Part shown: one piece after another, positions 165 through 59,126 of the stretch
Position numbering within the stretch: the stretch's first letter is position 1
Layout of the letters: every line of letters begins with the position of its first letter
Origin: Victivallales bacterium
Lineage (GTDB): Bacteria > Verrucomicrobiota > Lentisphaeria > Victivallales > UBA1829
Assembly: GCA_045612485.1 (NCBI GenBank)
Contig: JAZKZE010000115.1
Location: 3,524-67,523 of the forward strand
Direction: 5' to 3'
Length of the DNA: 64,000 nt
Made by a program: the position numbers and the translations under genes
Notes under the pieces: generated by a model
The model's input: the letters and a program-made list of their open reading frames with translations, nothing else
Databases searched by the model: none
What the model was told of the DNA's origin: nothing

Positions 165-1538
165 ATGAGTACGGATAAAAAATATGAGATGGATATGTGC
201 CATGGACCGCTGTTCAGCAAGGTGCTGCATTTTTCCGTCCCGCTGATCCTTTCCAATCTTGCCGCATTGCTTTTTACTGCCGCTGATCTGGTAATTCTGG
301 GGCAGTTTACCACTTCTGATGATATGGCGGCAGTGGGTGCCTCCTGCGGTTTTATTGTCCTGATGCTCAATCTTTTCTGGGGGATCGCCGCCGGAGTGAA
401 TGTGCTTGCCGCCCGTTATACCGGGGCGAAAGATCCGGAAAAGGTATCGAAAACAGTCCATACGTCCATTGCAGTTGCGGCTGTGGGCGGAATCATTATG
501 GGGATCATAAGTTATCTTCTTACCGATCCCATTCTGCGTATTATGGCAACGCCGGAAAAGATTATGGACAAGGCAAGACTCTATTTGCAGATCTCCTGTA
601 CGGGTGTGCCTTTCATGATCCTTTACAGTTTCGGCAGTTCCATCATCCGGGCGGTGGGGGATACAAAAAGACCGCTCATTTATATGATCATATCCGGGAT
701 AGCCAATGTGCTTCTCAATCTTTTCTTCATCCTTGTGCTGAAAATGGATGTTGCCGGGGTTGCCATAGCCACCCAGGCGGCACATTTTATTTCTGCATTT
801 CTGGTTCTGCGGGCTTTGGTGAAGTCGGAGGAAGATTATAAACTTGTCTGGAAAAAGATCCGTATTGACTGGAAGAGTTTCAAGGAGATGATGCAGATCG
901 GTATTCCTGCCGGATTTCAGGGTTCCATGTTTTCCATATCCAATATGGGAATACAATCCACGATCAATACTTTCGGCCCTGACGCCATTGCCGGGAATAC
1001 CGCTGCCAATAATCTGGAAGGACTGGTTTATGCTGTATGTTATTCCTTCTATTTTGCCGCCATAAGTTTTGCCGGACAGAATCATGGCGGAAAACAGTAT
1101 AAAAGGATCATAAAAAGCATATTTATCTGCATGCTGTATTCTGCAGTGGGGACCGTTCTTCTGGGATGGGCTTTTATTTTTTTCGGAAAAGAACTTCTTG
1201 CCATATACACCCCGGATCCGGAAGCGGTGAAATGGGGATTCATCCGCGTGAAAATGATTTTTGCTCTTTATATCATGTGCGGCATCATGGATGTTATATC
1301 CGGTGCCCTGAGGGGATTGGGACATTCTCTGAAGCCTGCCATCGTGATCGTTTTCTGGGTCTGTATATTCCGTATAATATGGATCTTTACGGTATTTCCC
1401 CTCAAGCCCACTCTGGAAACGCTTTTGCTGGTGTATCCTGTATCCTGGATCATGGTATGTCTGTTCAACGGGGTGATGCTTTATATCGTATGCCGTAAAA
1501 TGCTGGTGAATGCAAGCAAACGGCTGTTTGACAAATAG
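165..1538 (+). CDS. MATE family efflux transporter (paralog 1 of 3)
   Basis: 457-aa highly hydrophobic multi-TM ORF typical of MatE transporters. GGAGAGG lies upstream of the ATG. Its N-terminus ([19 protein letters not shown]) is shared with the next two genes. Confidence 0.9.
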   Translation: MSTDKKYEMDMCHGPLFSKVLHFSVPLILSNLAALLFTAADLVILGQFTTSDDMAAVGASCGFIVLMLNLFWGIAAGVNVLAARYTGAKDPEKVSKTVHTSIAVAAVGGIIMGIISYLLTDPILRIMATPEKIMDKARLYLQISCTGVPFMILYSFGSSIIRAVGDTKRPLIYMIISGIANVLLNLFFILVLKMDVAGVAIATQAAHFISAFLVLRALVKSEEDYKLVWKKIRIDWKSFKEMMQIGIPAGFQGSMFSISNMGIQSTINTFGPDAIAGNTAANNLEGLVYAVCYSFYFAAISFAGQNHGGKQYKRIIKSIFICMLYSAVGTVLLGWAFIFFGKELLAIYTPDPEAVKWGFIRVKMIFALYIMCGIMDVISGALRGLGHSLKPAIVIVFWVCIFRIIWIFTVFPLKPTLETLLLVYPVSWIMVCLFNGVMLYIVCRKMLVNASKRLFDK

Positions 1539-1553
1539 CGGGTGGAAATAAAA

Positions 1554-2927
1554 ATGAGTACAGAAAAAAAATATGCAATGGATATGTGTCATGGACCGCT
1601 TTTCAGCAAGGTATTGCGTTATTCACTTCCGCTGATCCTTTCCAATCTTGCCGCATTGCTGTTTCATGCTACCGACCTTGTTGTACTGGGGCAGTTCACC
1701 ACTTCCGACGATATGGCGGCAGTGGGGGCTACCAGCGGATTTATCCTTCTTATGCTCAATCTTTTCTGGGGCGTTTCCACGGGAGTAAATGTACTGACCG
1801 CCCGTTATACCGGAGCGAATGATCCGGAAAATGTATCAAAAACCGTCCATACTGCTATTGTCGTTGCGGCTCTTGGCGGGATCATTATGGGGGGGATAAG
1901 TTATCTTCTTACCGATCCCATTCTGCATCTCATGGCAACACCGGAAAAGATCATGGACAAGGCAAGACTGTATATGCGTCTTTCCTGTGCCGGGGTGCCC
2001 TTTATTATTTTTTACAGTTTCGGAAGTGCTGTCGTCCGGGCAGTGGGGGATACAAAACGGCCGCTTATCTATATGATCGTTTCCGGTATCATCAATGTTT
2101 TTCTCAATCTCTTTTTCATCCTTGTTCTGAAAATGGATGTTGCCGGAGTTGCCATAGCCACCCAGGTGGCTCATTTGATTTCCGCCTTTCTTATTTTGCG
2201 GGCATTGATAAGATCCAATGAGTCATATAAACTTGTCTGGAGAAAGATCTGTATTGACTGGAAGAGTCTGAAGGAGATGCTGCAAATCGGTATTCCTGCC
2301 GGGGTGCAGGGGTCTATGTTCACCATTGCCAATATGGCGATACAGGCTACCATCAATACATTCGGACCTGCCGCCATTGCCGGAAGTACCGCCGCTGTCA
2401 GTCTGGAAGGAACTGTCCATACGGTTTGCGCCACATTCTACCTTACAAGTATAAGTTTTGCAGGACAGAATCACGGCGGTAAAAAATATAAAAGGATCGT
2501 AAAAAGCATCTTTATATGTGCCGTCTGCTCTGCGGTGGGGATCGCGGTAATGGGATGGACTTTCATCCTTTTCGGTAAACAGCTTCTTGGCGTATATAAT
2601 CCGGATCCGGAGGTCATCCAATGGGGATTCATCCGTGTAAAAATGGTACTTTCCCTTTACTTCCTCTGCGGTGTCATGGATGTTATTTCCGGGGCGTTGA
2701 GAGGTTTGGGACACTCTTTGAAGCCCGCCATAGTCATCGTATTCGGTGTTTGCGTGTTCCGTATGATCTGGATCTTTACTGTATTCCGGCATGATCCTAC
2801 ACTGGAAACGCTTTTTATCGTTTATCCGGTATCATGGATTTTGATTTGCCTTATCAATGGTACAATGCTTTATGTTGTATGCCGTAAAATGCTGAAAAAT
2901 GCAAGCAGACGGTTGTTTGACAAATAA
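1554..2927 (+). CDS. MATE family efflux transporter (paralog 2 of 3)
   Basis: The ORF opens at GTG 1542, but ATG 1554 ([19 protein letters not shown]) aligns with the paralog 1 start. By eye it is very similar to paralog 1 along its whole length. Confidence 0.9.
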   Translation: MSTEKKYAMDMCHGPLFSKVLRYSLPLILSNLAALLFHATDLVVLGQFTTSDDMAAVGATSGFILLMLNLFWGVSTGVNVLTARYTGANDPENVSKTVHTAIVVAALGGIIMGGISYLLTDPILHLMATPEKIMDKARLYMRLSCAGVPFIIFYSFGSAVVRAVGDTKRPLIYMIVSGIINVFLNLFFILVLKMDVAGVAIATQVAHLISAFLILRALIRSNESYKLVWRKICIDWKSLKEMLQIGIPAGVQGSMFTIANMAIQATINTFGPAAIAGSTAAVSLEGTVHTVCATFYLTSISFAGQNHGGKKYKRIVKSIFICAVCSAVGIAVMGWTFILFGKQLLGVYNPDPEVIQWGFIRVKMVLSLYFLCGVMDVISGALRGLGHSLKPAIVIVFGVCVFRMIWIFTVFRHDPTLETLFIVYPVSWILICLINGTMLYVVCRKMLKNASRRLFDK

Positions 2928-2944
2928 ATAGGAAAGGAATGAAA

Positions 2945-4336
2945 ATGAGTAACGGAAAAAGGTACAAGATGGATATGTGTCACGGACCGCTTTTCAGCAA
3001 GATCGTCCGTCTTGCAGTACCTCTGGCAATGGCAAATGCTCTTGCTTTGATGTTTCATGCGGCAGACTTGATGGTGCTGGGGCATTTTGCCTCTTCCGAC
3101 GCTATGGCGGCAGTGGGGGCGGCTCCCTCTTTTACCACTTTGATGCTCAATCTTTTCTGGGGGATCGGTTCCGGGGTGAATGTACTTGTTGCCCGTTATA
3201 CCGGGGCAAAGGATAAACTGCATCTGGAAAAAACCATCCATACGGCGATCACCGTTGCCATTGCCGGCGGGATCATCCTTGCTGTTGGCGGCTGTTTTAT
3301 CACGAAGCCTGTTTTGCGTTTTATGGAAGTTCCTGACGTGATTTTTGATAAAGCCTGTCTTTATCTGTGGATCTGGTGTCTGGGGTCGCCTTTTATGATC
3401 CTTTACAGTTTCGGCAGTGCCATCCTCCGGGCGATCGGGGATACAAAGAGGCCGCTTATCTATATGATCATTGCCGGAGTGACCAATGTATTATTGAATC
3501 TCTTTTTTGTTACTGTATGTAAAATGGATGTTGCCGGAGTTGCCATTGCCACAAAGATCTCCAATGCGGTTTCCGCCATTCTTGTACTTATCGCCCTTAC
3601 CCGCAGTAAGGAAGATTATCAACTCATTTGGAAAAAACTCACATTCTACTGGCCCGTATTCAAAGAGATGTTGCGTATCGGTATTCCGGCAGGGATACAG
3701 GGGGCGTTGTTCTCTCTTTCCAATATGATCATTCAGGGGACCATCAACTCTTTCGGTCCTGCTGCCATTGCCGGAAGTACGGCGGGATTGAGTCTGGAAG
3801 GGATCGTTCATGCCGGAGCGACGGCTTTTGCATTGGCGGCAATGAGTTTTGTGGGACAGAATCACGGGGGCAGACAGTATAAGAGGATTATGAAAAGTAT
3901 TTATATATGTCTGGGGTGTTCCTGCGGGGTGATGATCGCAGGCGGCGGTATCATTCTGGCATTCCATACCCAATTTCTTTCCATTTTCAATCCTGATCCG
4001 GAAGTGATCAGATGGGGGTCGATCCGGCTTTTCTGTCAGTTGTCTTTCTATCCTCTGCTTGCTGTAATGGAGGTGCAGAATTCTTCTCTGCGGGGACTTG
4101 GGTACTCATTCTGGCCTATGGTCATTACTCTTATGGGGGCATGTGTTTTCCGGGTGATTTGGGTATTTACCATCTTCCCCCATTACAAAACTATGGAAAA
4201 TCTGATGATCTCCTATCCGGTTTCCTGGACTCTCATCTGTCTGGTCAACGGAGCATTGCTTATCTGTATCTGCCGCAGGATGCTTATACGGGCAAGCAAA
4301 CGGCAGTTTGATTTACTGACAGTAAAGAAAAGTTGA
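2945..4336 (+). CDS. MATE family efflux transporter (paralog 3 of 3, more diverged)
   Basis: Multi-TM ORF. ATG 2939 or 2945 could be the start; 2945 ([19 protein letters not shown]) matches the paralog N-termini and sits about 6 nt after AGGAAAGGA. Confidence 0.88.
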
Positions 4337-6333: not shown

Positions 6334-6358
6334 GCGTAAGTTTTATTTTACGGAAAAA

Positions 6359-6403
6359 GGGGCTGTTGCAAAACCTCAAAAAAGGTGAGCAACAGCCTTT
6401 TTT
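6359..6403 (+). terminator. rho-independent terminator
   Basis: GGCTGTTGC (6361-6369) pairs with GCAACAGCC (6389-6397), followed by T6. Confidence 0.8.
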
Positions 6404-6495
6404 ATTGTTTGAGCTGAATATTGGAGGTATAACAGGTCATAACAGGGGAGAATTATACCTTGTTTTATAAATACACAAGGCTATTTATTCCATTG

Positions 6496-6808
6496 CTCAA
6501 ACATTGTGTTTGAGGGAACTGGATTTTTGATCGTTTATAAAAAAAGTTGGAATTGTTTTTATCGTGACGATAAAAGCAATTCCGTCAAAAGTTTTTGGAA
6601 GATGGGGAGCGGGGAAGAGAACCTTTTTTCAAAAAGGTGTCTTCCCCGCAAAACATTTTTGCAACAGCCCCTTTTTTTTCTGCTTTGCACGGCTTGATAA
6701 AAATGGGTAGCAGAAAATGTGATTTTCTGCCCTTCGGCTCCCTTGGAGCCTTGTTAAGTCCCGCGCTGCGTACCATTCAAAAAGGGCGTATTGCAAAAAA
6801 AAATGCAA
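6496..6808. other. non-coding tract containing seven consecutive distinct hairpins
   Basis: Hairpins read directly from the sequence: 6496-6514 (8 bp), 6549-6582 (16 bp), 6610-6648, 6648-6662, 6710-6730 (9 bp), 6736-6750, 6791-6808. There is no convincing ORF. Confidence 0.6.
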
Positions 6809-6831
6809 CACACCCTTTTCTATCCGTACTT

Positions 6832-7263
6832 TTAATATTCCTTCATGGCGTCAGCCGAAAAAATTGCTTTTCTATCTCCGGGGATCTCTGAGGCAAAAGA
6901 GATGCCACTTCCGGAACATTTGAGCGGGGTATCGGCAAGGATGAATCTACTCTGGGCAAGATCATTGAGGAAGGTGATACATTCTTTGTAGGATTCCCTG
7001 ATCTTTTCCGGAACATTATTACCGGGACCGCGTTTGTATAATTCATATTCTGCAATGCGTAAGGTCCATTCTGTAATGAGGGGATTATCCGTAAGGGGGA
7101 CATTGTAGCGGATGCAGGCATAATTATTTACAAAACTTTCTGCTCTGGCAATGATCTCGTCAAGGAGTTTTATAAGGTTTTCGCCTGTTTTTCCGGAAAG
7201 ATTTTCCAGAACAGGACGTGTAAGACGGTTTTCCAGATCTTGCTTCTGAATATAATTTCCCAT
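6832..7263 (-). CDS. Mu gp36-like protein (DUF1320 family)
   Basis: 143 aa. The pattern Y..QDL......L..L...(30 aa)...ARAESFVNNYACIRYNVPL....L.EWTLRIAEYELYKR is typical of the DUF1320/Mu gp36 family. Confidence 0.8.
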   Translation of the reverse strand: MGNYIQKQDLENRLTRPVLENLSGKTGENLIKLLDEIIARAESFVNNYACIRYNVPLTDNPLITEWTLRIAEYELYKRGPGNNVPEKIRESYKECITFLNDLAQSRFILADTPLKCSGSGISFASEIPGDRKAIFSADAMKEY

Positions 7264-7342
7264 GGTTTCCTTTCTTTAGTATGCAATATAAGAAAAATCT
7301 CTCCGGACCGGGGTGGAATGTCCGGAGAGGAAAGGTGAAGAC

Positions 7343-8260
7343 TTACTCTTTGCTTCCGCCCTGATAGATCAGATGGGGGAAGGCGGTGAAGGAGGCGCCT
7401 CTGGCATTGGTGCCGTAAATGTATTCTTTATTCTTGAATACATTTTCATCCCCTTCTGAATCCAGACGGATGAGAGAAGGCATTTTCCGCTGCTGGATAA
7501 AGACAGGTTTGAGAACTCCGTCTGTTGCGGCAAGATACCAGTTATCCTCGTATTCGCCGGAAAGTTCGGGAAGTACCAGAAGTTCCGCGCTTCCGTTCCA
7601 GGGATTATCCGTTGCGGCAACCCCGGAAACATTTCCCTCATTGACTGTATGAAGAGTAAGACGGTCTTTCAGAATACTGAAAGCTGTTTCTTCATTTTTG
7701 GGACCGACAATAAGAAGATTAGGGATGATCCCCAGGTTTCTGCCGGAATGACCTTTATAATTCATCATGGTCATACGGGCGGAGGCGTAGGCAGAGGCGG
7801 AAAGAGGGGCGGAGGACTGATTGCAGATCACATTTTCCCCGTAAAGACGGCTGGAAGAGAAAAATTTCAGATCGTCCGCCCAGACCTGGTTGCTTACCAG
7901 AGCTTCCACGGCAAGATCGTGCCATAATCTTGCCGCATGGCAGCCCATCTGTGCAATGAGGGTGGAATAGATCCCGTACTGATCGTCTTCAATGTCATTT
8001 CCGGGAACGGCAATGGTTTCTTCAAAATCCCGGTTGAGGACTTCCAGTTTCCTGGTGGCGAGATCTTTGATGACTCTTTCGCCGATCCATTCTCTCATGC
8101 CGCCGAACTGTTCCAGGAAGGGGTAAACGTTGGAGGCACTTCCGGAGGGGATCACAGAACAGAATTTCTGCCAGGAAGCCGGGACTTTTTCCAGCCCCTG
8201 AAGAAAACTTGTGTTGAAGCCCTGAAAAAGTACATCCATGGTTTTACGGTTGATATCCAT
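7343..8260 (-). CDS. Mu-like major head subunit (gpT family)
   Basis: 305 aa. The N-terminus MDINRKTMDVLFQGFNTSFLQG...YPFLEQFGGMREWIGERV is characteristic of gpT-type capsid proteins. Confidence 0.9.
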   Translation of the reverse strand: MDINRKTMDVLFQGFNTSFLQGLEKVPASWQKFCSVIPSGSASNVYPFLEQFGGMREWIGERVIKDLATRKLEVLNRDFEETIAVPGNDIEDDQYGIYSTLIAQMGCHAARLWHDLAVEALVSNQVWADDLKFFSSSRLYGENVICNQSSAPLSASAYASARMTMMNYKGHSGRNLGIIPNLLIVGPKNEETAFSILKDRLTLHTVNEGNVSGVAATDNPWNGSAELLVLPELSGEYEDNWYLAATDGVLKPVFIQQRKMPSLIRLDSEGDENVFKNKEYIYGTNARGASFTAFPHLIYQGGSKE

Positions 8261-8314
8261 ATTTTATCCTTTCTTTTTTATGATTCTGTATGGAGAGTAA
8301 GTGTGTGTCTGATT

Positions 8315-8740
8315 TTATGCTCCGGCAAGGACAAGATTGCCCACTTCCACAATGAGAAGTCCGTCGGAATCGATCTCCCGGAGAACGCCTGCGGGGATTC
8401 TGTTTGTGCCGCCGTTTTTGCCAACGGTGTGGTCATCCACCACATAAACGATGTGATTGATGTCCTGTTCGCCAAGTTTTTCTCCTTCCGTACCGTTATC
8501 GTACTTGAACATTCCGGATTTGATAATGATCCTGCCGTCTGCGGCAAATCCTTCGGCTCTGCCGAGAACGATAAGTCCGGGGGAGTCGGAGGCATTCTGT
8601 GCCATTCCGGTAAGGGGATCTACGGCGGCGATAGCTCCGGTGAAAATTGTGCTGCCTGTTTTGATTTTTCTGATCCTGCGGAACTTCTGGGAGTGACAGA
8701 GAATCTCCGGGGTGTTTCTGTTTGCAGTAAGTGCTGCCAT
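8315..8740 (-). CDS. small phage head-associated protein (position of a decoration/DUF2190-like protein)
   Basis: Start taken at the internal ATG 8740 (MAALTANRN...), preceded by a GGAAAGG-like SD. It lies between the gpI and gpT genes. Function is inferred from position only. Confidence 0.55.
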   Translation of the reverse strand: MAALTANRNTPEILCHSQKFRRIRKIKTGSTIFTGAIAAVDPLTGMAQNASDSPGLIVLGRAEGFAADGRIIIKSGMFKYDNGTEGEKLGEQDINHIVYVVDDHTVGKNGGTNRIPAGVLREIDSDGLLIVEVGNLVLAGA

Positions 8741-8846
8741 GATTTTTTCCTTTCCAGCAGAGTGATGATCTGCTTTTTTCTTGTTGAAAGACAGAATATT
8801 TCTGTCTTTATGTTTTTGGTCAGAGAATTTTTTTGAGAATTGCTTT

Positions 8847-9737
8847 TTAATTTTTATTTTCTGTAAGTCCCAGCATGGAAAAAATCTCTTTTTCCAATGC
8901 GGAGGGAGAAGGCTTTTCTTCCGGTAAACGGGCCTGATCGGTATAGAGATTATCCGGAACGATCCGGGGGGCAGTTTGACACCAGAGATCAAAAAGGGCC
9001 GGATTTTCCTTCAGAAGAGTGTTTGCCCAGCAACGCATATTTTCAGTAAGGATCCCCCGGGAGAATGCTATTTGCAGTTTTTCATTTCTTACGATCTCTT
9101 CCGCCCGGGAAAGCAGTTTATTTGCATCCGCAAAATTTTTTATTCTGTGTGTTCTGAAAAATGTTTCTTTTTCCCTGTCGCCGGAAGTATCGGTACTGCC
9201 GGTCAAATCACTTGCCGCAAGCGGCGGAATATTATGCAGTGCCGGATGATTGGTCAATGCCACAGAATGGATCCCTGTGACATTTCCGGATCCGTTGGAA
9301 AAATACAATACCGGGGAATAATAGCGGTATTTTCCGCTGAGAATGAGTTCTTCCGCTTCTTTGGTCCAGTATTTGACAAGCCCTGCAAGACCTTCTTCAC
9401 TTTTTCGCAGCTCTTTGATCCAGCCCGCCGCCGGTGCCTTTGTTCCGCTGATGCTCTGATGTTCAAAATCAATAACAAGATCTTTGCCCCGGTTATGGAA
9501 TTCGTCTATGATGGTATCGGCATCTTCCGGAGAAAAAAAGAATTCTCCCTCATCGCCATCTTTGGTATAAGAATTTTTTCCATACTTCAAGAGAAGGATT
9601 TCTTCCGGAAGGGTACGGTTATTGGTATCGCTTACCGGGGAAGGAGGGGTGTTTTCTTTCCTTTTCTGTGAGATCGTTTCCGTAAAAGAGACGGGAATGA
9701 CAGTGGCATGGAAATATGCCATGGAATCCATTTGCAT
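8847..9737 (-). CDS. Mu-like prophage protein I (head protease/scaffold)
   Basis: Start at ATG 9737 (MQMDSMAYF...) after AAGGAAAG. Contains VIDFEHQS and AGWIKEL...YYSPV motifs typical of the Mu gpI family. Confidence 0.85.
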   Translation of the reverse strand: MQMDSMAYFHATVIPVSFTETISQKRKENTPPSPVSDTNNRTLPEEILLLKYGKNSYTKDGDEGEFFFSPEDADTIIDEFHNRGKDLVIDFEHQSISGTKAPAAGWIKELRKSEEGLAGLVKYWTKEAEELILSGKYRYYSPVLYFSNGSGNVTGIHSVALTNHPALHNIPPLAASDLTGSTDTSGDREKETFFRTHRIKNFADANKLLSRAEEIVRNEKLQIAFSRGILTENMRCWANTLLKENPALFDLWCQTAPRIVPDNLYTDQARLPEEKPSPSALEKEIFSMLGLTENKN

Positions 9738-9753
9738 TTTACTTTCCTTTTTT

Positions 9754-11094
9754 TTATGGGTTGTTTTTGTCAGTTGCCTGTTTTTCAAGGCGGATATTGA
9801 AGGCTTTTTCGATCCATTCGGGAGAGATGGCAAAATTGCTTTCAGAAAGCAGTTTGATGATCTGTGCTTTTTCCAGAAGATTTTCCGGAGAGGAAAAATC
9901 CAGGATGAAACGGTATTCACCGTCAGTACCGTAACAGTATTTTTCCAGAGGACGGAGCAATTGATTGTTGATTGTTTCCATCAGGGCGCGGCAATCTGCT
10001 TCCAGAATATCATGTCTTACATTTTCCTGGATCTGACCTTTGCTGAAGCCTCCGGAAACGGAACTGGAGGCAGTCTGTCCCAGAATGAGAAGGGTGTAAA
10101 GTTTATCTATGTAGTCCAGAAAAGTCTGGTACTCGCCGGAAGCGCTTATACCGGGAGAGAGAGTCTGGATCTGGGATTCTCCTGTAACGACTCCGGAACC
10201 GTCGGAAGAGATCCTGTTCAAGGCTGCAAGAATATTTTTTCTTGTATCCTCATTTTCAAAGTCCTGCTGATTGATCTTTGCAATGAGGAAGGGAACACCG
10301 AATTTTTCCAGAAATCTTGCCCTGTCTCTTAATGCATAATGTTTGAAAAAGTACAGCCACAGAAGGGGACGGAGCAAGCCGCCGCTGCCGCAGGGACCGG
10401 ACTTGAGCTTGTGGTAATGGAGAATAAACTGATGGGGATGATACTGGTAAAGGGGCCGGATCTGACCGCTATATGTACGCAATGCCGGATTGCCTGCGGC
10501 ATCAAAAAGAAAATTTTCCTGACAGATGCTTTTAAATCCTTTTATGGAAGAACCTCCTTCCTCCCATTCAATGACGGCTCCGGCACAGCCGAAAGCAAGG
10601 CTTTCCATAAGATGACGGAGCAAAAAATTTATGTTGGCTTTTTCCAGAATGGAGGAAAGCATACTGATTTTTTCCGGATCACGTCCGGCGATCTGCCAGT
10701 CACAGGCACATACAGCAAGTATTCTTGTTTGCAGATGAGCCGCAATGACCGGTTCATTTTCCAGTATGGCTCTGTAAAGGAAGGCCTGATCATAAAGAAA
10801 ACCGCTGTCCGCCTCTGTTGTTGCGGATCTGATGCGTGATGCGGAGATCTTTCCTGAAGGAGCAGGAACGGTAGAACAGAGTAATTCCTGAAAGTCTCTG
10901 CTTGAGTTACCGGACGGGATGGAACTGAGTCTGCTTTTGTGATTTTTTTCTGCCGGGGACGGACTGTATCTGATACAGTTTTCCGGCAAAGAAATTTTAC
11001 TGTCAGAAAGAGTTTTGGTTTTACGGAAAGAAAATGGCTGAAAGAAGGACGCTGTCATTTTCCCGGCAAAAAGGTGAAAGTGATTTTTTTTCAT
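9754..11094 (-). CDS. phage portal protein, Mu gp29-like (DUF935)
   Basis: Start at ATG 11094, 7 nt after AGGAG. Conserved blocks: IAAHLQTR, GCAGAVIEWEE, LLRPLLWLYFFKHYALRDRARFLEKFGVPF. Confidence 0.88.
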   Translation of the reverse strand: MKKNHFHLFAGKMTASFFQPFSFRKTKTLSDSKISLPENCIRYSPSPAEKNHKSRLSSIPSGNSSRDFQELLCSTVPAPSGKISASRIRSATTEADSGFLYDQAFLYRAILENEPVIAAHLQTRILAVCACDWQIAGRDPEKISMLSSILEKANINFLLRHLMESLAFGCAGAVIEWEEGGSSIKGFKSICQENFLFDAAGNPALRTYSGQIRPLYQYHPHQFILHYHKLKSGPCGSGGLLRPLLWLYFFKHYALRDRARFLEKFGVPFLIAKINQQDFENEDTRKNILAALNRISSDGSGVVTGESQIQTLSPGISASGEYQTFLDYIDKLYTLLILGQTASSSVSGGFSKGQIQENVRHDILEADCRALMETINNQLLRPLEKYCYGTDGEYRFILDFSSPENLLEKAQIIKLLSESNFAISPEWIEKAFNIRLEKQATDKNNP

Positions 11095-11267
11095 ATTCAG
11101 GGATCTCCTTTGGTTTGATCTCTGGTAAGGAGTATGCGTCAAACAAAAGGAGAAAAAAAGTAAAATTGGAGAATAAAAATTTACTCTCCGGAAAATGGTT
11201 CTGCTGATGGAAAAAACATGACAGGAAGGTTTTTTTATGAAAAAAAAGGGGGTTTTTTGCACTAAAA

Positions 11268-11300
11268 CAGAAATATTTCAGAAATATTTCAGAAATATTC
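11268..11300. repeat. 3 x 11-bp tandem repeat (CAGAAATATTT), each unit with an AAATATTT palindrome
   Basis: Units at 11268-11278, 11279-11289 and 11290-11300 (last base C). The array abuts the -35 box of the promoter below. Confidence 0.9.
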
Positions 11301-11329
11301 TTGCAATTCATCATAGAGGAGGCTATAAT
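11301..11329 (+). promoter_or_regulatory. sigma70-type promoter (TTGCAA-17-TATAAT) for the TolC-like operon
   Basis: TTGCAA at 11301-11306, a 17-nt spacer, consensus TATAAT at 11324-11329; about 60 nt upstream of the ORF start. Confidence 0.65.
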
Positions 11330-11389
11330 AAATTAATGTAATATTTTAACAAAGCCGCTGATTTTTGTCAGTGGTGTGAATAAAGGTTA

Positions 11390-13159
11390 ATGGACAGGAG
11401 TATTTCAATGCGGAGAATTGCAGTTTCAGGTATAGTTGCAACGGCACTTTTGCTTGCTTTTTGTGTGACGGCATGTAAATCTATGGAATCTTATACGGCG
11501 GATCGTGCCGAACGGTCAGTTCTGGATACGAAAAAAGCAAGGAATATGGAGTTGCTTGACGGAAGAGTATATAATCTGGAACAGTGTATAAGTTATGCTT
11601 TGAAACACAATCTGCAAGTCCGTCTGCATGAACTGGATGTGAAAATCGCCAAAGAAAATAAGATGGCAGAGGTCATGGGGATGCTTCCTGAACTCAATTT
11701 CAATGAAAATTTCAGTGCCAGAAGCAATACTCCTGCTTCAGGAAGTGAAAAGATCCATGAGGACGGCGAAACCTACGGGAACAGTACAAGTGAAGAACGT
11801 CAGGTCAATTACTTCAATATCGACCTTGTATTCAGCGTTCTGGATATGGGATTGAGCTACTGGAATACGGAAATAGCACACAATAAAATGCTTCTGCATA
11901 AACAGCGTGCAGCCCGTATGAGTCAGAATATCCAGCTGGATGTTGTGAAGGCATACTTCAAAGTTGCCGCTGCGCAGCGTGCAAAAAATAAAACAGAAAA
12001 ACTTCTTGCTGAAACAAGGAAGAAAGCAGATGATATCCGCAAACTTTCCCTGACCGGTAAAATGGATCCCATCATGGCATTCAATGTCCTGCGGAAATTT
12101 ACCGCTATGGAAAAACAGCTGACCAATTATGTTAGAGTATATGAAAATGCTTGTACGGAACTGCGTACACTTATGGGACTTTATCCCAGCCCCATGATCA
12201 ATGTTGATGAAAGCTGCCTGGATAATCTGAAGGCATTGGAACTTTTTTCCGCTCTTGACCGTATGGAAAAGACTGTGGGGGCGGATGGAACAGAATATCT
12301 CCACAGAGATGGTGCAGTATGGAGAGATGATTCCGCACTTCCGGATGTGAGATTTACTCCTGTTGAACTTATGGAACAGATCGCTCTTCTCCAGCGTCCT
12401 GAAATGTATGAAAGCGACCTTCAGCAGATGATCAATGTGATCGAATGCCGCAAGGTCATTCTGATGATGTTCCCCAATGTGAAACTTTATACGGAATGGG
12501 CAAACAGTTCCAATAAATATCTCTATCACCAGAGCTGGCTTGAGCTTGGTGTGCGTGCCGCATATAATCTTCTCCTGCTCCCCCATCATATTGCCAAATA
12601 TACGGCATACAGCAAGCAGACGGAAGTATCTGCAATGCGCCGTTATGCAAAATCTGTGGCAGTGATGGCACAGGTGCGTCTGGGACATGCCAATTTGCTT
12701 TCCGCGCAGGAGATCTACAAAAAAGATGTTCAGATCAGCAGGGATTATAAACTGCATCTTGCCAATGCCTCCAAAGTTCTCAAATCCGGTGCCGGTAAAT
12801 ATAAAGGCATGGATCTGGAATACATGCGTCTGGAAACACTTAAAGCAGAGATCGATTCCATCCTTTCTCTCGGAAACTGCTATGTGGCGTACTACCGTCT
12901 GCTCAATGCCATGGGGATAAACAGTGCAGATTACCGTACTTTGGATTCTCTCTGGGAAGAACTTTCCGATACAGCAAGAAAAGCGGCTTCTTCCATGAAA
13001 AAGGCCCGTCAGGAGTATAAAGCGGAACGGGTGGAACAGTTCCGTCAGGAATTGGAAAAACAGGCTGCCGCTGAAAGAAAACAGGCCGAAGAAGCAGACA
13101 GAGCTTTGCGTGAGAAGATCAATCGTGAAATCGACGCAAAACTGGGTAAACGTAAATAA
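11390..13159 (+). CDS. TolC-like outer-membrane efflux-family lipoprotein with a C-terminal charged coiled-coil tail
   Basis: Lipobox LLAFCVTAC. An alternative start is ATG 11408, after AGGAG. OEP/TolC-type repeat pattern (LEQCISYALKHNLQV..., LDVVKAYFKVAAAQRA...). The last ~70 aa are K/E/R/A-rich (EKQAAAERKQAEEADRALREK). Confidence 0.85.
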   Translation: MDRSISMRRIAVSGIVATALLLAFCVTACKSMESYTADRAERSVLDTKKARNMELLDGRVYNLEQCISYALKHNLQVRLHELDVKIAKENKMAEVMGMLPELNFNENFSARSNTPASGSEKIHEDGETYGNSTSEERQVNYFNIDLVFSVLDMGLSYWNTEIAHNKMLLHKQRAARMSQNIQLDVVKAYFKVAAAQRAKNKTEKLLAETRKKADDIRKLSLTGKMDPIMAFNVLRKFTAMEKQLTNYVRVYENACTELRTLMGLYPSPMINVDESCLDNLKALELFSALDRMEKTVGADGTEYLHRDGAVWRDDSALPDVRFTPVELMEQIALLQRPEMYESDLQQMINVIECRKVILMMFPNVKLYTEWANSSNKYLYHQSWLELGVRAAYNLLLLPHHIAKYTAYSKQTEVSAMRRYAKSVAVMAQVRLGHANLLSAQEIYKKDVQISRDYKLHLANASKVLKSGAGKYKGMDLEYMRLETLKAEIDSILSLGNCYVAYYRLLNAMGINSADYRTLDSLWEELSDTARKAASSMKKARQEYKAERVEQFRQELEKQAAAERKQAEEADRALREKINREIDAKLGKRK

Positions 13160-13225
13160 GAGCAATGTTTCGGGTTATAACTAAAGATTAAGAAATATAT
13201 TCAGGAATACAGGACGGAGGAAGGA

Positions 13226-15394
13226 ATGCAGAAGTTGAAAGTTTCCATCATATTTACTCTGGCAGCCGCCGGCGGGATCGCCATGAGTGTTGCCGGCTGC
13301 CGCACGGAAGAATCTTACCGTGAGGAAAGAAAAGAGAAGGCTGTTGCCGTTTACAGGGATGTCAAAGCCAAAGAGTATCACAAAGGGATGACTCTTACTC
13401 TTGATGATTGTATCAGTTTTGCGTTGCGGAACAATATGAGTGTCAAGGTGGCAAATATGGAACGGGATGTCGCTGAAAGAATGAGAACGGCAGATATTCT
13501 GGGAATGCTTCCTGATATTACCATATCCGATAATTTTGCAGGAAGAAGCAATTCTCCCGGTTCAGGCAGTAAAGCTGTTGTAGGGGATGGAGCCACTTAC
13601 GGTTACAGCCGCAGCAGTGAAAAACGGGTCAATAACTTTAATATTGATTTTGCATTCAGTCTTCTGGATTGCGGACTTGCCTTCTTCAATGCACAGCAGA
13701 GTCATGACCGTATGCTTTTGCAGGAAAAAGCCGCAGAACGTATCAAACAGAATATTGTACTGGATACAGCAAAAGCCTATTTCCGTGTAGCGGTTGCCCA
13801 GAGAGCTGCCAAGTTGACAGAAGATCTGCTCAAGGAGTGCAAAGACCGTTATGAACTTATCCGGAAATTGCGCAAGGATAACAAGATCGATCCCTATCTT
13901 GCAACAGAAGAGATCAATAAGTTCCTTGCCATGGAATACCGTTTGAGAAATTATATCAGAACCAATGCCACTGCCCAGATCGAACTGAGAACTCTTATGG
14001 GGGTATATCCCGGGGAAGAGCTGAAAGTGGATGATTCTGTTCTGGATAATCTCCCCCAGATGGATATTCCGGATATTTCTCTTCTGGAACAGATCGCTGT
14101 TCTGAAAAGACCTGAACTTTATGAAACAGACATGCAGAAACACATCAACATCATCGAGTGCCGCAAAACCCTCCTTATGATGTTGCCCAATGTACGTCTT
14201 TACGGGGATTTTATTAACAACAGCAACTCCTTCCTGATGCATCAGTCCTGGTGGGAACTTGCGGTGCGTGCCGCATACAATGTACTGAAAACCCCCCAGT
14301 ATATCTACCGTTACAGAGCCTTCAATGAACAGGCATCTCTGGAAGAGTTGCGTTCTTTCGTCCAGGCGATCGCTGTTATGTCCCAGGTGCGTATGGCGGC
14401 TTCCGACATCATTGCCTGCCGTGACCGTTATGACATCAATGTGCGTGATGATGAGATCTATACCAAACACCTGGCAAAGACCGCAAAAGCCAAAGTCGTC
14501 AATATGAAAAAACTGGAATTGGAACATTTGAGAATGGTTGCAGCAGAAACCCGTATTGAGAAACTCATCTCCATGGGGGCCTGTCATATTGCCAATTACC
14601 GTCTGCTCAATGCGCTGGGTATCGACTCTACAGACAGCAAGACCATCGGTTCCATCAAAAGTCAGCTTGATCTTGCCAAAGTGAGAGCTGAAAAACAGCT
14701 TGCTGCCGCAGAAAGAGATTTCCAGGCAAAACTCAATGCCCTTGAAGAGGCGCGTATCGCCCGTATGCTTTTTGATGATGCTTCTGCCTACTACAAGGAT
14801 AAAAAATATGTTGAAGCTGCTGAGTATCTTAAACGTGCGGCAAAGAGAGGAAATGCAGAAGCCTGGTTCTGTCTCGGAAAACTTTACTGGAACGGCAACG
14901 GCGTGAAGAAGGATTATATGAGAGCCGTCCGCTGTTTCGTAAGATCTGCCGATCTGGGGAAAAAGGAAGCACAATTGCTTGCCGGCTGGACCTATTACAA
15001 GGGCGGGCCTGTGAAACAGGATCTTGCCATTGCAAAGAAATATTACCGTATGGCGGCAGACAATGCTGAAGAAAGAGCATTTTACTGGCTGGGTGTAGTC
15101 AGTTACGACATGAAAGATTACAAGGATGCCATGTACTATTTCAAATATGCCGCCAGAGGCGGGGATGTGGGATCTATGGTCTGGGTCGGTACGCTTTACC
15201 GTAACGGACTTGGTGAAAAAGTGGATTACGACAAAGCCGTTTTCTGGTATGAACGTGCAGCGAAAAAGAATAATGTGGATGCGATGAACTGTCTGTATAT
15301 GATGTATGCGGGTGGTTATGGCATCAAAGCTGATGAAAAGAAAGCAGATGAATGGCTGAAGAAATATGAAGCTGCCACTGCTGCCAGATATTGA
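13226..15394 (+). CDS. TolC-like outer-membrane lipoprotein fused to C-terminal Sel1-type repeats
   Basis: Lipobox MSVAGC. The N-terminal ~500 aa are paralogous to the previous gene. The C-terminal ~200 aa carry about 5 Sel1-like repeats (AEAWFCLGKLYWNGNGVKKDYMRAVRCF..., DAMNCLYMMYAGGYGIKADEKKADEWLKK). Confidence 0.85.
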   Translation: MQKLKVSIIFTLAAAGGIAMSVAGCRTEESYREERKEKAVAVYRDVKAKEYHKGMTLTLDDCISFALRNNMSVKVANMERDVAERMRTADILGMLPDITISDNFAGRSNSPGSGSKAVVGDGATYGYSRSSEKRVNNFNIDFAFSLLDCGLAFFNAQQSHDRMLLQEKAAERIKQNIVLDTAKAYFRVAVAQRAAKLTEDLLKECKDRYELIRKLRKDNKIDPYLATEEINKFLAMEYRLRNYIRTNATAQIELRTLMGVYPGEELKVDDSVLDNLPQMDIPDISLLEQIAVLKRPELYETDMQKHINIIECRKTLLMMLPNVRLYGDFINNSNSFLMHQSWWELAVRAAYNVLKTPQYIYRYRAFNEQASLEELRSFVQAIAVMSQVRMAASDIIACRDRYDINVRDDEIYTKHLAKTAKAKVVNMKKLELEHLRMVAAETRIEKLISMGACHIANYRLLNALGIDSTDSKTIGSIKSQLDLAKVRAEKQLAAAERDFQAKLNALEEARIARMLFDDASAYYKDKKYVEAAEYLKRAAKRGNAEAWFCLGKLYWNGNGVKKDYMRAVRCFVRSADLGKKEAQLLAGWTYYKGGPVKQDLAIAKKYYRMAADNAEERAFYWLGVVSYDMKDYKDAMYYFKYAARGGDVGSMVWVGTLYRNGLGEKVDYDKAVFWYERAAKKNNVDAMNCLYMMYAGGYGIKADEKKADEWLKKYEAATAARY

Positions 15395-15444
15395 TTCAAT
15401 AGCTGTATAAGCATGTAAAGAAAAAACTTTATCTTTTCAGTCAT

Positions 15445-15478
15445 GCCGGACAGAGTTGTTCTGTCCGGCTTTTATTTT
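15445..15478 (+). terminator. rho-independent terminator
   Basis: GCCGGACAGA pairs with TCTGTCCGGC (10-bp stem, 5-nt loop), followed by TTTTATTTT. Confidence 0.8.
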
Positions 15479-15492
15479 CAGATGGATTACTT

Positions 15493-17739
15493 ATGAAGAT
15501 TCCAACAGCACAGGTTCTTGTCAATCTTTCACTGGACAGATGTTTTGATTACCGTATTCCGGAACATCTGTCGGAAAAGGTGAAAGTAGGCATGAAAGTA
15601 ATGGTACCTTTCGGCAGGGGGAATTCCCGGCGGGAAGCGTATGTGGTTGCTTTGCGTGTGCTGGATATCCCGGATGAAAAAAGAAGTGTGTATAAGGATA
15701 TTTCCGGGATCTGTGTAAATTTTCCCGCATTGTCCGATCAGATGGTGAAACTTTCCGAATGGATGGCAGATTATTATTGCTGTGCAAGGGAAGTGGCGGT
15801 GCGTTCTCTTCTTCCGGGAGCTGTCCGTAATGGAAAGATCAAAGAAAAGACAAAGAAGGTCTATTTTCTTTCGGATACGGCAAAAGCTCTTGCCTTTATA
15901 GAGGAAAATCCCCGGGCAAAAGGAAAGATCGCCGTGATCCGGTCTTTGCTGAGAAGAAGCGGAACGGATAAGGATTTTATTCTTTATGATGCGAAAGTTA
16001 CTGCTGCTGTTTTAGAGGAGCTTGTAAAACTTTCGCTGGTAAGTTACGACGAAGTAGCTGTTGAACGGCAGTTTGCCAATGATAAAGTCATCCGTTCCAA
16101 ACCCCATGCACCCACAGAGGAGCAGGCGAAGGCATTGCAGATCATTACGGAAAAGATGGATTGTATCAAGGCGGAGGAACCTCATACAGTCCTGCTCCAC
16201 GGGGTGACGGCTTCCGGGAAAACGGAAGTCTATCTTCAGGCGATCTCTCATGCTGTGGAAGCGGGGAAGGAAGCTATTGTACTTGTGCCGGAAATTTCTC
16301 TTACGCCACAAACGGTGGAACGGTTCCGTTCCCGTTTCGGGGATATGGTCAGTGTCCTTCACAGCGGGCTTACGGATGTGGAAAGGTACGAGGAGTGGAT
16401 GAAGGTCCATGCCAGGAAAGTAAAGATCGCAGTAGGGGCAAGATCGGCATTGTTTGCTCCTTTCCGTCAACTGGGGTTGATCATTGTGGATGAAGAGCAT
16501 GATTCCTCTTATAAACAATCGGAAGCTCCCCGGTATAATGCAAGGGATGTGGCTGTTGTCCGGGGAAAATTTGAAAAGTGTGTGGTGATCCTGGGATCGG
16601 CTACGCCTTCACTGGAATCGTATAAAAATGCCCTTGACGGGAAATATACGCTTTGTGAGATGAAGAAAAGGACGGACGCCAATATCGTTCTCCCTGAGGT
16701 CAAGATCATTGATATGCGTCTGGAGGCGGATGATGAAGGGAAAAAGCCGGTTTTTTCCAAATTTCTTATTGATGCAGTTCATAAAAGGATCGCCATGGGG
16801 GAGCAGAGTATCCTCTTTTTCAATTTGCGGGGGTATGCAAGAAAGCTGGTCTGTACTGCCTGCGGGGCATATCAGGCGGAGTGTCCGGAGTGTTCGGTAG
16901 CTTATACCTATCACAAACGGGCGGGGGTATTGCGTTGTCCCCGGTGTGCGGCAACTTTACTTGCACCGGAAAAATGTCCGGAATGCGGTTCATCTGAATT
17001 GAAATATATTGGAGTGGGGACGGAAAAAATCGAAAACATTTCTTTTGATGTGTTCAAAGGGGCAAGGATCTCCCGTATGGATTCGGATGTGATGACTACC
17101 GCCCGTAAATATGAGGAAACATTAAGCAAATTCCGCCGCGGCGAAACGGATATTCTTGTAGGCACGCAGATGATCGCCAAGGGGCTTCACTTCCCCAATG
17201 TGACCCTTGTGGGGCTTATCAATGCGGATATCGGATTGAATATGCCGGACTTCCGTGCCTTTGAGCGTGGTTTTCAGTTGATCACCCAGGTGGCTGGGCG
17301 TGCCGGACGGGGGGAGGTGCCGGGGGAGGTGCTTGTACAGACAACTTTGCCCTTCAATCCGGCAGTATGCTGTGCAGCCAATCATGATTTTAAAAGTTTT
17401 TATGATGAGGAGATCCTGATAAGAGAAGAGTTGCAGTATCCCCCCTTTGGTCATTTGATGGCGGTACATTTCAACGGGGAAGATCCGTCAAAAGTGATGG
17501 AGGAAGCGTTGCTTCTTATGGAAAAAGTTCTTCCTTATAAAGAGGAGGCTACTTTATATGAGGAACCCCGCTGCGCCCATTTTGAAAGGATGAAAGGAAA
17601 GTACCGGTTTATTGCGGTATTCCGTTCCGGAAATCTGGCACCTTTACGCAGGGCGTTGCGTAAAGAGATTTTTCAGGCAAATTACCACAGGAAAAAGATG
17701 GAAGTATATGTGGATGTGGATGCCATATCTCTTTTGTGA
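15493..17739 (+). CDS. priA: primosomal protein N' (replication restart helicase PriA)
   Basis: 748 aa. Walker A GVTASGKTEVY, DEEH box IIVDEEHD, and a Cys-rich zinc-binding insert (CTACGAYQAECPEC...CPRC...CPEC). Confidence 0.95.
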   Translation: MKIPTAQVLVNLSLDRCFDYRIPEHLSEKVKVGMKVMVPFGRGNSRREAYVVALRVLDIPDEKRSVYKDISGICVNFPALSDQMVKLSEWMADYYCCAREVAVRSLLPGAVRNGKIKEKTKKVYFLSDTAKALAFIEENPRAKGKIAVIRSLLRRSGTDKDFILYDAKVTAAVLEELVKLSLVSYDEVAVERQFANDKVIRSKPHAPTEEQAKALQIITEKMDCIKAEEPHTVLLHGVTASGKTEVYLQAISHAVEAGKEAIVLVPEISLTPQTVERFRSRFGDMVSVLHSGLTDVERYEEWMKVHARKVKIAVGARSALFAPFRQLGLIIVDEEHDSSYKQSEAPRYNARDVAVVRGKFEKCVVILGSATPSLESYKNALDGKYTLCEMKKRTDANIVLPEVKIIDMRLEADDEGKKPVFSKFLIDAVHKRIAMGEQSILFFNLRGYARKLVCTACGAYQAECPECSVAYTYHKRAGVLRCPRCAATLLAPEKCPECGSSELKYIGVGTEKIENISFDVFKGARISRMDSDVMTTARKYEETLSKFRRGETDILVGTQMIAKGLHFPNVTLVGLINADIGLNMPDFRAFERGFQLITQVAGRAGRGEVPGEVLVQTTLPFNPAVCCAANHDFKSFYDEEILIREELQYPPFGHLMAVHFNGEDPSKVMEEALLLMEKVLPYKEEATLYEEPRCAHFERMKGKYRFIAVFRSGNLAPLRRALRKEIFQANYHRKKMEVYVDVDAISLL

Positions 17740-18046
17740 TATGTGATTGAGTATCTGTTTATCTGTCAATTTGTCTATCTCTTTTCACAGTTATCTCATG
17801 ATTTATGAGTTTACCGGGAAGAAAGATTTGTTTGTGTTTTTCTCACCCTCATTTCCCTGACTTTTTCATTGTTCCGGGCCGTCTGGAAAGGTAAGGAGTT
17901 TTTTTACATTATAAGACGATTTTCTGCGGTACAGTTTTTCTCCACTGTGCGTTGGTTGGCAACCGCTCCGCCCGGCAGATGTGATTTTTTTGCCCAGAAG
18001 TTTTTTATAATCTTGCATAAAATAATACACATACAATAAAAGATGC

Positions 18047-18075
18047 TTGACAAATGAAGCATGATAGTGTATACT
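18047..18075 (+). promoter_or_regulatory. consensus-like sigma70 promoter (TTGACA-17-TATACT)
   Basis: TTGACA at 18047-18052, a 17-nt spacer, TATACT at 18070-18075. It shares the context AAAGATGCTTGAC with the 5965 promoter and lies about 290 nt upstream of the next start codon. Confidence 0.55.
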
Positions 18076-18371
18076 ATAAAGGATCATATTTTTCAGGTAT
18101 AAGGAAAGTTTGTAAAGGTGTGCCATATAACCTGTAATTATTTTTCACTGGATTTATTCTTTTTTTTGTTCAATCAGAGAATATATCCGGAAAATCAGAC
18201 AATACAAAAATCTTGAATAATGTTTTTTTTATTGTACTTTATAAAAAGGAACAATCGGTTGTATTCTTTATTTTCCGTTCAGAAAAAGAAAGACAGAAAA
18301 ATAAGAATTACGGACAATAAAAATAAAAATGCTTTTTTGAATATTAACAGATAAAAGAGATGTAAAAAATT

Positions 18372-19550: not shown

Positions 19551-19606
19551 GGGTTCGGAATAAAAACAATTTATATAAACAATAAACAACTGAAGGAGAA
19601 AAATTC

Positions 19607-20788: not shown

Positions 20789-20827
20789 GAAATACACAGT
20801 TTCCGGAAATCTTCATGGTTTCCGGAA

Positions 20828-20963
20828 ACGTCGCATAATATACATTATGTGACAGAGAAAGGCTTTTTTTCCGTTGCAAAATAAAAAAAAAGCAGATATG
20901 TGAAGTATAAAACAGATTTAATAGAAATTCAAAGGAGGTAACATAATGTATATTATGCGACGT
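20828..20963. promoter_or_regulatory. perfect 23-bp inverted repeat flanking a 90-bp spacer that holds the SD; the right arm covers the start codons
   Basis: The left arm 20828-20850 (ACGTCGCATAATATACATTATGT) is the exact reverse complement of 20941-20963. GGAGG sits at 20934-20938, and the candidate ATGs at 20946 and 20955 lie inside the right arm. Confidence 0.9.
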
Positions 20964-45531: not shown

Positions 45532-45567
45532 AAAAAAACGGGGCCGCTGCACTTTTGCAACAGCCCC
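45532..45567 (-). terminator. rho-independent terminator (minus strand)
   Basis: On the minus strand, GGGGCTGTTGC-AAAA-GTGCAGCGGCCCC is followed by T7. Confidence 0.8.
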
Positions 45568-45591
45568 ATTATCTTCTATATATAAAACTCT

Positions 45592-51608: not shown

Positions 51609-51626
51609 GCAAAAACTTTTCCTGTG

Positions 51627-53327: not shown

Positions 53328-53376
53328 CCTTTCCCCTGTTTTTCCTGTTCAGAAAAAACAGAAATACCGTATTGCA

Positions 53377-55046: not shown

Positions 55047-55090
55047 CTTATTTCCTTTCCCGGACAGAATCTGTGCAATTCATTTTCCCG

Positions 55091-59085: not shown

Positions 59086-59126
59086 GTTTCGTCCTTCGTA
59101 TATTATTATTTTCTGTTTTTATTCTG

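Follow-up and report, generated by a model that had tools for sequence, protein, structure and literature searches.

A stand-alone Mu-like head gene module kept by selection in Victivallales, and its possible place in a dispersed gene transfer agent-like system

The DNA considered here, a 64-kb stretch of contig JAZKZE010000115.1 from a Victivallales bacterium (assembly GCA_045612485.1; hereafter the window), carries at positions 6832-11094 a compact module of five genes related to the head genes of bacteriophage Mu. The open reading frame (ORF) listing of the window shows all five to be intact and to run in the same direction on the minus strand, and Pfam and PHROG matches place them in the families that a first-pass annotation, made from the sequence alone, had named. 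From the first gene to the last, these are:

9754-11094, minus strand: portal, Mu gp29 family, 446 amino acids (aa); PF06074, E=1.6e-68, profile positions 3-336 of 336; phrog_113, portal
8847-9737, minus strand: head maturation protease/scaffold, Mu gpI family, 296 aa from the ATG at 9737; PF10123, E=1.9e-41; phrog_328
8315-8740, minus strand: 141-aa protein, probable decoration or cement protein; phrog_1731, "virion structural protein", E=3e-17; no Pfam match
7343-8260, minus strand: major capsid protein, Mu gpT family, HK97 fold, 305 aa; PF10124, E=2.8e-60
6832-7263, minus strand: gp36/DUF1320 head-tail adaptor (head completion), 143 aa; PF07030, E=1.8e-17; phrog_195, head-tail adaptor

The profile hidden Markov model (HMM) comparison that the first-pass annotation had suggested puts four of the proteins above the gathering thresholds of their Pfam families, with bit scores for Portal_Mu, Mu-like_Pro, Mu-like_gpT and Phage_Mu_Gp36 of 232, 143, 205 and 64 against cut-offs of 24, 25, 20 and 25, respectively. 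The capsid protein additionally matches PDB entries 8rkc ("Bacteriophage Mu GpT domain-containing protein"; E=5e-32) and 9jod (E=4.5e-24), and the portal retains 26 of 28 family-conserved positions. In the protease, whose reading frame extends open to 9920, beyond the ATG at 9737, the window protein keeps both the histidine that corresponds to H73 of Mu I, present in 72 of 73 homologues, and the serine that corresponds to S129, present in all 73, along with the family aspartate and asparagine; a catalytic role for this His/Ser pair is assumed from the family. The Shine-Dalgarno-like sequences reported at the outset are also present, as purine-rich AAGGA-type motifs before each of the five genes, and the portal start (ATG at 11094) and its AAGGAG are conserved in two retrieved relatives (L003 and L004; loci from other genomes and contigs are designated by L and a number).

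The 141-aa protein has no significant match in a sequence search against the PDB. An AlphaFold2 model built from 15 homologues is all-beta (mean predicted local distance difference test score, pLDDT, of 83.8), and its top PDB matches by Foldseek probability are XM1 7kmx_a (probability 0.99), Pam3 8hdt_G, T1 9kzj_I, phiCD508 9gay_C and HFTV1 8qsy, all of them small auxiliary chains in phage capsid reconstructions, with weak E-values of 9e-3 or worse. The gene is missing from two subclades, which carry 4-gene forms of the module. Because of these structural matches, the position of the gene between those for protease and capsid, and its dispensability in some lineages, we consider the product a probable decoration or cement protein.

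No other phage gene accompanies the module. In Pfam scans of approximately 44 large ORFs, the 64 kb yielded no gene for a terminase, gp30/F, G, tail, lysis, transposase or repressor function, and HMM and phmmer comparison of the full set of window ORFs from 50 aa upward, using Mu late proteins, 237 ORFs from Lentisphaeria Mu-like prophages, genes of the sister clusters described below and a PBSX-type terminase HMM as queries, likewise returned none. Both kinds of search bear out the earlier statement that the usual Mu neighbors are absent, and the idea that further phage genes lie concealed in the window was rejected on the same empty scans.

The module is not peculiar to this genome. One genome per GTDB species was surveyed, with genes labeled by iterated HMMs for which phage Mu supplied the seeds. 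All retrieved loci whose capsid shares 59% identity or more with that of the window (the window itself, L002-L025, L043 and L189; clade capsids 59-90% identical to the window capsid) carry a stand-alone module of four to five genes. At least 16 other Lentisphaeria/Victivallales species genomes (L011-L025, L043), plus many metagenome contigs, have it without terminase (large subunit, TerL), gp30/F, G or tail genes; the species representatives were sampled from yak, sheep, human and digester. The closest capsid relatives are metagenome contigs of up to 90% identity, and those that are named are labeled as Lentisphaeria or Victivallaceae metagenome-assembled genomes (MAGs). Relatives at 90%, 67% and 65% capsid identity hold portal, protease, an optional protein of approximately 140 aa, capsid and gp36 in different cellular surroundings, with no terminase or tail gene in any of these three neighborhoods. 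Across the clade, the module occupies at least five synteny groups with different housekeeping or other cellular genes around it: in one, the 4-gene form lies between FKBP and metallophosphatase genes, and the others include group D (L021/L023) and several individual loci, each with flanks of its own. The comparison with related genomes proposed by the first-pass annotation thus finds the cassette clade-wide and, as detailed below, with ratios of nonsynonymous to synonymous divergence (dN/dS) well below 1.

At 36-52% capsid identity, the more distant loci of Lentisphaeria and Victivallaceae are real Mu-like prophages, which encode TerL, portal, in most cases F, protease, a homolog of the 141-aa protein (p141), capsid and gp36. 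In a neighbor-joining tree, computed without support values, the capsids of the stand-alone modules group together as one clade, which lies within the wider diversity of complete Mu-like prophages of the phylum; two scans of IMG/VR recovered no viral capsid more than 45% identical to that of the window. Several complete prophages (L042, L044, L045, L048, L055) also run directly from portal to protease without gp30/F, and the absence of gp30/F from the module is therefore probably ancestral. One of them, L042, carries in order the small terminase subunit (TerS), a PBSX-type TerL, portal, protease, p141, capsid and gp36, and plausibly represents the ancestral arrangement.

Pairwise NG86 estimates over many pairs with synonymous divergence (dS) of 0.25-1.9 give dN/dS of about 0.03-0.45 across all five genes. 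The capsid is the most constrained (0.00-0.21, mostly 0.03-0.14), and the ranges for the portal (0.05-0.28), 141-aa protein (0.06-0.32), gp36 (0.07-0.39) and protease (0.10-0.47) compare with values of approximately 1 or more for spurious antisense ORFs on the same DNA, which served as a control. Within a given pair of genomes, module genes and flanking host genes have dS values of similar magnitude. Between L003 and L011, dS is 0.75 for PriA and 0.61 for an AMP-binding regulator, against 0.50 for the capsid, 0.66 for the portal and 1.0 for the protease; between L005 and L018, flanking genes give 0.15-0.54 and module genes 0.35-0.39; and between the window and L003, PriA gives 1.40 (85% identity) and the capsid a lower 0.74 (90% identity). 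In GC content, GC content at third codon positions and codon usage, the module is indistinguishable from 29 host genes, with a correlation of r=0.89 to the host pool versus a mean of 0.81 for individual host genes. The module is maintained by purifying selection and is not decaying.

Relatives that carry the module also carry a candidate partner for it. A terminase of the Mu gp28 type was considered and rejected, since an HMM built from gp28 matched true prophages only and the terminases that stand alone in these genomes belong to a different, PBSX-type family. With the TerL of the closed chromosome described below as query, this family proves large and uniform in Lentisphaeria (436-441 aa, 54-65% identical), and its members often lie on contigs of 100-290 kb. 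In four of five inspected neighborhoods (L182, L186/L187, L188, L190), TerL is solitary among purely cellular genes:

GH95, TerL, MR_MLE (ADurb.Bin242, L182)
PFK, TerL, DcuC
ferredoxin, TerL, ABC transporter
SpoU, PP2C, TerL, cellulase

These lone TerLs are 436-440 aa long, keep the Walker A motif GGSRSGKT, and evolve at dN/dS of 0.08-0.19. TerL and module occur in the same MAG in six cases. For ADurb.Bin242, the module is on MWCA01000053 (L017) and the lone TerL on MWCA01000059 (L182), as judged by contig names; in five more MAGs, the NCBI protein accessions of TerL and capsid are 12 to 1184 apart within the same submission block, and from NCBI numbering of whole-genome shotgun proteins we infer that such adjacent blocks belong to the same assembly. 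Identities of TerL and capsid run in parallel across four genomes (68 and 69%, 61 and 59-60%, 49-50 and 42-45%). In the closed chromosome (L179) and in prophage L042, a TerL of this type is also physically linked to genes of this head lineage.

The fifth neighborhood (P0166; L183-L185) is a real mobile element. Within 10001-21311 of these loci, the TerL relative is followed by a giant ORF of approximately 4480-4585 aa with ddrB-ParB, Zeta-toxin-like and helicase domains and preceded by DnaB-primase and methylase genes, which marks it as a large mobile element or phage of Lentisphaeria. A further TerL cluster (P0133; DAH36295.1, "Caudoviricetes sp." in NCBI) has members of 90% identity on contigs of up to 242 kb named Lentisphaeria bacterium, and its viral label is probably an artifact of virus mining on a chromosomal gene.

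A sister clade of the module, at 52-54% capsid identity, has a different organization. A closed 8.6-Mb Victivallales chromosome (OY787460.1) holds, between cellular genes, a compact cluster of approximately 10.6 kb (L179, also retrieved as L027; 7995-18623) with protease, p141-like protein, capsid, gp36, a 1131-aa protein, a DUF1353 protein (a tail-fiber chaperone by PHROG), small ORFs, TerS and a PBSX-type TerL; no portal gene was found in the cluster or within 10 kb of it. Capsid and TerL genes each occur a second time on the same chromosome (L033 and P0122, respectively), and the cluster looks like another GTA-like (gene transfer agent-like) or degenerate element. In a rearranged sister locus (L026, 5176-9340), the portal gene lies downstream of the capsid gene. 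Another (L180, also L028; 8519-17415) encodes protease, a 139-aa protein (p139) and capsid, then eight co-directional ORFs without Pfam or PHROG function, one of which is common to the 1131-aa protein of L179. These additional genes (the 1131-aa and DUF1353 proteins of L179 and the eight ORFs of L180) were considered as missing tail parts and rejected: they are mostly without PHROG function, and no homolog lies near any module.

The surroundings of the module in the window are cellular, as the first-pass annotation had stated, and Pfam places the flanking genes in the MatE, SDR, OEP, PriA and GDSL families. One flank consists of three MatE genes (tandem efflux paralogs at 165-4336), an SDR gene and two small ORFs; the other, of two OEP/TolC-like genes (tandem paralogs at 11390-15394, the second with a C-terminal Sel1-repeat extension), PriA and GDSL lipases. 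In a distant synteny group (L010), too, the module has an OEP gene upstream of it, a hint that the linkage may be old. The remaining genes among the approximately 44 large ORFs scanned have housekeeping or envelope functions, including a type II secretion operon on the minus strand (50538-60895) with GspC-like, secretin D, E, F, G, pseudopilin and J-like genes; neither a tRNA gene nor an Rfam family match was found in the window. Long ORFs lie antisense to real genes throughout (e.g., 7937-8836, plus strand; 11738-13165, minus strand); as their dN is at or above dS across relatives, they are not coding. The two non-coding regions that border the module, put earlier at approximately 290 and 470 bp, are present at slightly greater length:

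11095-11389, no strand: putative divergent control region, 295 bp, common to the portal gene and the OEP/TolC-like gene
6334-6831, no strand: non-coding tract 3' of gp36, 498 bp, with several hairpins and a repeated motif

In the control region, which also contains the Shine-Dalgarno-like motif of the portal gene, promoter-like sequences face both ways: CTGACA-17-TAAAAT with a TG on the minus strand (11371-11343) and TTGCAA-17-TATAAT on the plus strand (11301-11329). Between the divergent promoter-like sites, at 11268-11300, an 11-bp unit GAAATATTTCT is repeated three times in tandem, with overlapping palindromes AGAAATATTTCT; it looks operator-like. The exact repeat occurs in the window only and in none of the retrieved relative loci. 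L002-L004 and L011 share with the window a conserved block of approximately 75 bp, which overlaps the promoter of the divergent OEP gene. Because this block is restricted to the closest subgroup and the 11-bp palindrome to the window, a conserved upstream regulatory motif was rejected.

The downstream tract is partly homologous to the region 3' of gp36 in L011 and has a terminator-like hairpin at 6731-6709. It also contains a perfect 20-nt inverted repeat, AAAAAGGGGCTGTTGCAAAA, with arms at 6354-6373 and 6657-6676 separated by 283 nt; similar copies occur at 6781-6798 and, at another gene end, at 45553-45570, for five matches against 0.13 expected. The repeat may be a REP-like (repetitive extragenic palindromic) or terminator motif, or a small insertion resembling a miniature inverted-repeat transposable element. 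In addition, a 61-bp non-coding stretch with a hairpin, GGGGAAGA...TCTTCCCC (6587-6647), is 80% identical (E=5e-5) to positions 16264-16321 of L188, an intergenic sequence at the lone-terminase locus of another Lentisphaeria MAG, and may be a shared intergenic repeat.

That the window harbors a domesticated, selected Mu-like head module is, in our judgment, very probable. The module would be a resident, vertically inherited set in gut and anaerobic-digester Lentisphaeria (Victivallales). Portal nucleation, scaffolding, proteolytic maturation, decoration and portal-vertex closure are established head-building steps for Mu/HK97-type families. By analogy with these families, a portal-bearing HK97-fold procapsid would assemble on the gpI scaffold and be matured by the gpI serine protease, the 141-aa decoration protein may stabilize the capsid, and gp36 would close or adapt the portal vertex; judging from the relatives, heads could then be filled with DNA through the solitary PBSX-type TerL encoded elsewhere. 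DNA-filled heads are suggested because portal and adaptor are retained under selection and because relatives conserve a solitary TerL: a closed compartment would need neither portal nor adaptor, and their retention thus points to heads that receive DNA. Such heads would make the module the head locus of a multi-locus GTA-like system rather than of a phage. Whether the module is GTA-like and packages DNA appears to us an evenly balanced proposition; we find the combined reading, in which a domesticated locus supplies the heads of a dispersed GTA-like system that belongs to the host and not to a phage, reasonably probable. A broader proposal, that these loci define an unrecognized class of host-owned capsids in the Planctomycetes-Verrucomicrobia-Chlamydiae (PVC) superphylum, in which a minimal Mu-derived head module and a solitary PBSX-type TerL, scattered in the chromosome and conserved across a Victivallales lineage, would package host DNA into heads with either no tails of their own or tails borrowed from infecting Mu-like phages, is possible though doubtful.

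Several observations weigh against this interpretation. Searches of the 10 kb around each module and lone TerL turned up no gene for a tail, TerS, lysis or a regulator, and a tailed GTA is consequently unproven. Co-occurrence of TerL and module is established for MAGs of other subclades (B/C-type modules) rather than for the window genome or its closest relatives, and binning errors in MAGs could create false co-occurrence. At least one phage-borne TerL (that of P0166) nests within the lone-TerL family, so that lone TerLs may have origins separate from that of the head module. Estimates of dS are near saturation in many pairs. Finally, a module gene is split or truncated in four relatives (capsid in L024, 10001-10918; protease in L013, 2051-3148; p141 in L002, 7276-8348; portal in L004, 2482-3822), which reflects either assembly errors or occasional decay or loss.

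The least probable alternative, and a very improbable one, is an ordinary prophage remnant, either the last piece of a Mu-like phage decaying neutrally or the product of a recent strain-specific deletion. The Mu-like phage origin of the head genes and the single split gene in a few relatives would be expected of such a remnant. However, at least 17 species-level genomes, along with many metagenome contigs, have the module intact; its gene set has stayed the same through moves into at least five contexts; all five genes give dN/dS far below 1; catalytic residues are retained; codon usage has converged on that of the host; and no relative has a complete prophage at the site. Clade-wide conservation, the capsid tree, dN/dS and the comparison of dS with host genes rule out a recent deletion or neutral remnant. 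The first-pass annotation had argued against random decay, a point supported by the clade-wide intact module, purifying selection and kept residues, and had offered three explanations in its place. Its very recent deletion is at odds with a whole species clade of capsids at 59-90% identity, purifying selection and host-like divergence; selection for a capsid-like particle agrees with dN/dS far below 1 and clade-wide conservation; and, in its option of a satellite or GTA-like arrangement relying on functions elsewhere, the GTA-like form gains support from the lone large terminase encoded elsewhere in module-bearing relatives, and the satellite form does not, there being no integrase, replication gene or sign of mobility. 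The contrary evidence that it had named (truncation, lost catalytic residues, a full prophage at the site in relatives, neutral evolution) was looked for and not found.

Two further alternatives accept selection and differ over what the heads do. It is unlikely, though the best of the remaining options, that the module is an exaptation free of DNA, in which empty portal-bearing shells serve some purpose other than DNA transfer, such as housing proteins, acting as decoys for infecting Mu-like phages or interfering with them, or being secreted, and the lone TerLs are unrelated remnants. Purifying selection fits any particle-forming role equally, the head genes alone are conserved together, tail, TerS and lysis genes were not found near the modules or lone TerLs examined, and the lone-TerL family has phage-borne members. 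Yet portal and gp36, whose roles in DNA entry and retention and in tail attachment would be superfluous in a closed compartment, are under purifying selection; the module has no cargo-like gene or extension; the five proteins and two neighboring small ORFs have no defense-family match in PADLOC-DB; and TerL is conserved and intact alongside the module in six MAGs. It is quite unlikely, too, that the module is helper-dependent, making heads with the lone TerL and taking tails, and perhaps TerS and lysis functions, from Victivallales Mu-like phages, in the manner of a satellite that has become fixed in the chromosome. Such dependence would account for a gp36 adaptor that is kept though no tail genes are seen, and complete Mu-like prophages with homologous gp36 and head genes do circulate within the same taxonomic order (L030, L037, L039, L040, L044, L045, L050, L054); but there is no integrase, replication or excision function or other sign of mobility, the module diverges like the surrounding host genes and unlike a satellite, tail genes may simply sit elsewhere in the genome, and capsids only 36-52% identical to those of the prophages make compatibility uncertain.

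Set beside known systems, the module is neither a Mu prophage nor an encapsulin, and neither a satellite nor a known defense system. With Mu and Mu-like prophages (the gp27-gp37 region; FluMu, JBD30-type), it shares homologous portal, protease/scaffold, capsid and gp36 genes in the same order, but it is without TerS/TerL (gp27/gp28), gp30/F, G, gp37, tail, A/B transposase, lysis and repressor genes. It also has, unlike Mu, a decoration-like gene between protease and capsid, as do many non-Mu "Mu-like" prophages, and the terminase of its relatives is of the PBSX type, in contrast to the gp28 type of Mu. Encapsulins are likewise cellular HK97-fold shells of phage ancestry maintained by the host, but have no portal, maturation protease, decoration or adaptor protein and adjoin cargo genes; the module has all four and no evident cargo gene, its neighbors being an OEP gene and an unrelated small ORF. 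Capsid-forming phage-inducible chromosomal islands (cf-PICIs) are satellites in which a small gene set encodes their own portal, protease, capsid and head-tail connector, with other functions encoded elsewhere, and the module resembles them in its own head genes and its dependence on functions elsewhere. PICIs and cf-PICIs, however, are mobile and carry att sites together with genes for an integrase, replication and regulation, whereas the window has none of these; the module, moreover, holds orthologous positions and has dS of the same order as its host flanks, which counts against a satellite.

GTAs (RcGTA and other alphaproteobacterial GTAs, BaGTA, VSH-1, Dd1) and the module have in common chromosome-fixed phage structural genes, vertical inheritance, purifying selection, and the absence of replication, integration and immunity genes. 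In the way it would work, the module is most like multi-locus GTAs such as RcGTA. The RcGTA genome is multilocus (PMC5026251), and the head module and lone TerL of the relatives are similarly dispersed, on different contigs. The ancestry differs, with Mu-type portal, gpI, gpT and gp36 and a PBSX-type TerL here, as do the host, a member of the Lentisphaerota in the PVC group, and the extreme reduction and dispersal: the main RcGTA cluster has terminase, head and tail genes contiguous, whereas here the head genes stand alone and TerL is solitary in relatives. Characterized GTAs come from very few lineages, mostly Alphaproteobacteria (PMC12946183, PMC11841831), and the recognition of new GTAs among defective prophages is a stated open problem. 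A 2026 paper on capsid-mediated DNA mobilization in the gut lists the known GTA lineages, with Lentisphaerota absent, and our full-text literature searches found no description of a Lentisphaerae/Victivallales GTA or of a domesticated Mu-type head.

The module presents a clear comparative-genomic case in which selection has preserved phage head genes in a phylum other than that of most known GTAs, among bacteria that are common in human and ruminant guts. It also carries a warning for annotation, as "Mu-like prophage" labels, and at least one "Caudoviricetes" terminase label, mark host genes in these genomes. Should an unrecognized PVC class prove real, it would represent an independent origin of GTA-like transfer in gut bacteria that are abundant but little studied, more reduced and dispersed than any characterized GTA. 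If the particles do not package DNA, a portal-bearing capsid would have been put to non-viral use, which is rare in bacteria; if they do, genes would have a new route of exchange in gut microbiomes, and a Mu-type head would have been domesticated independently.

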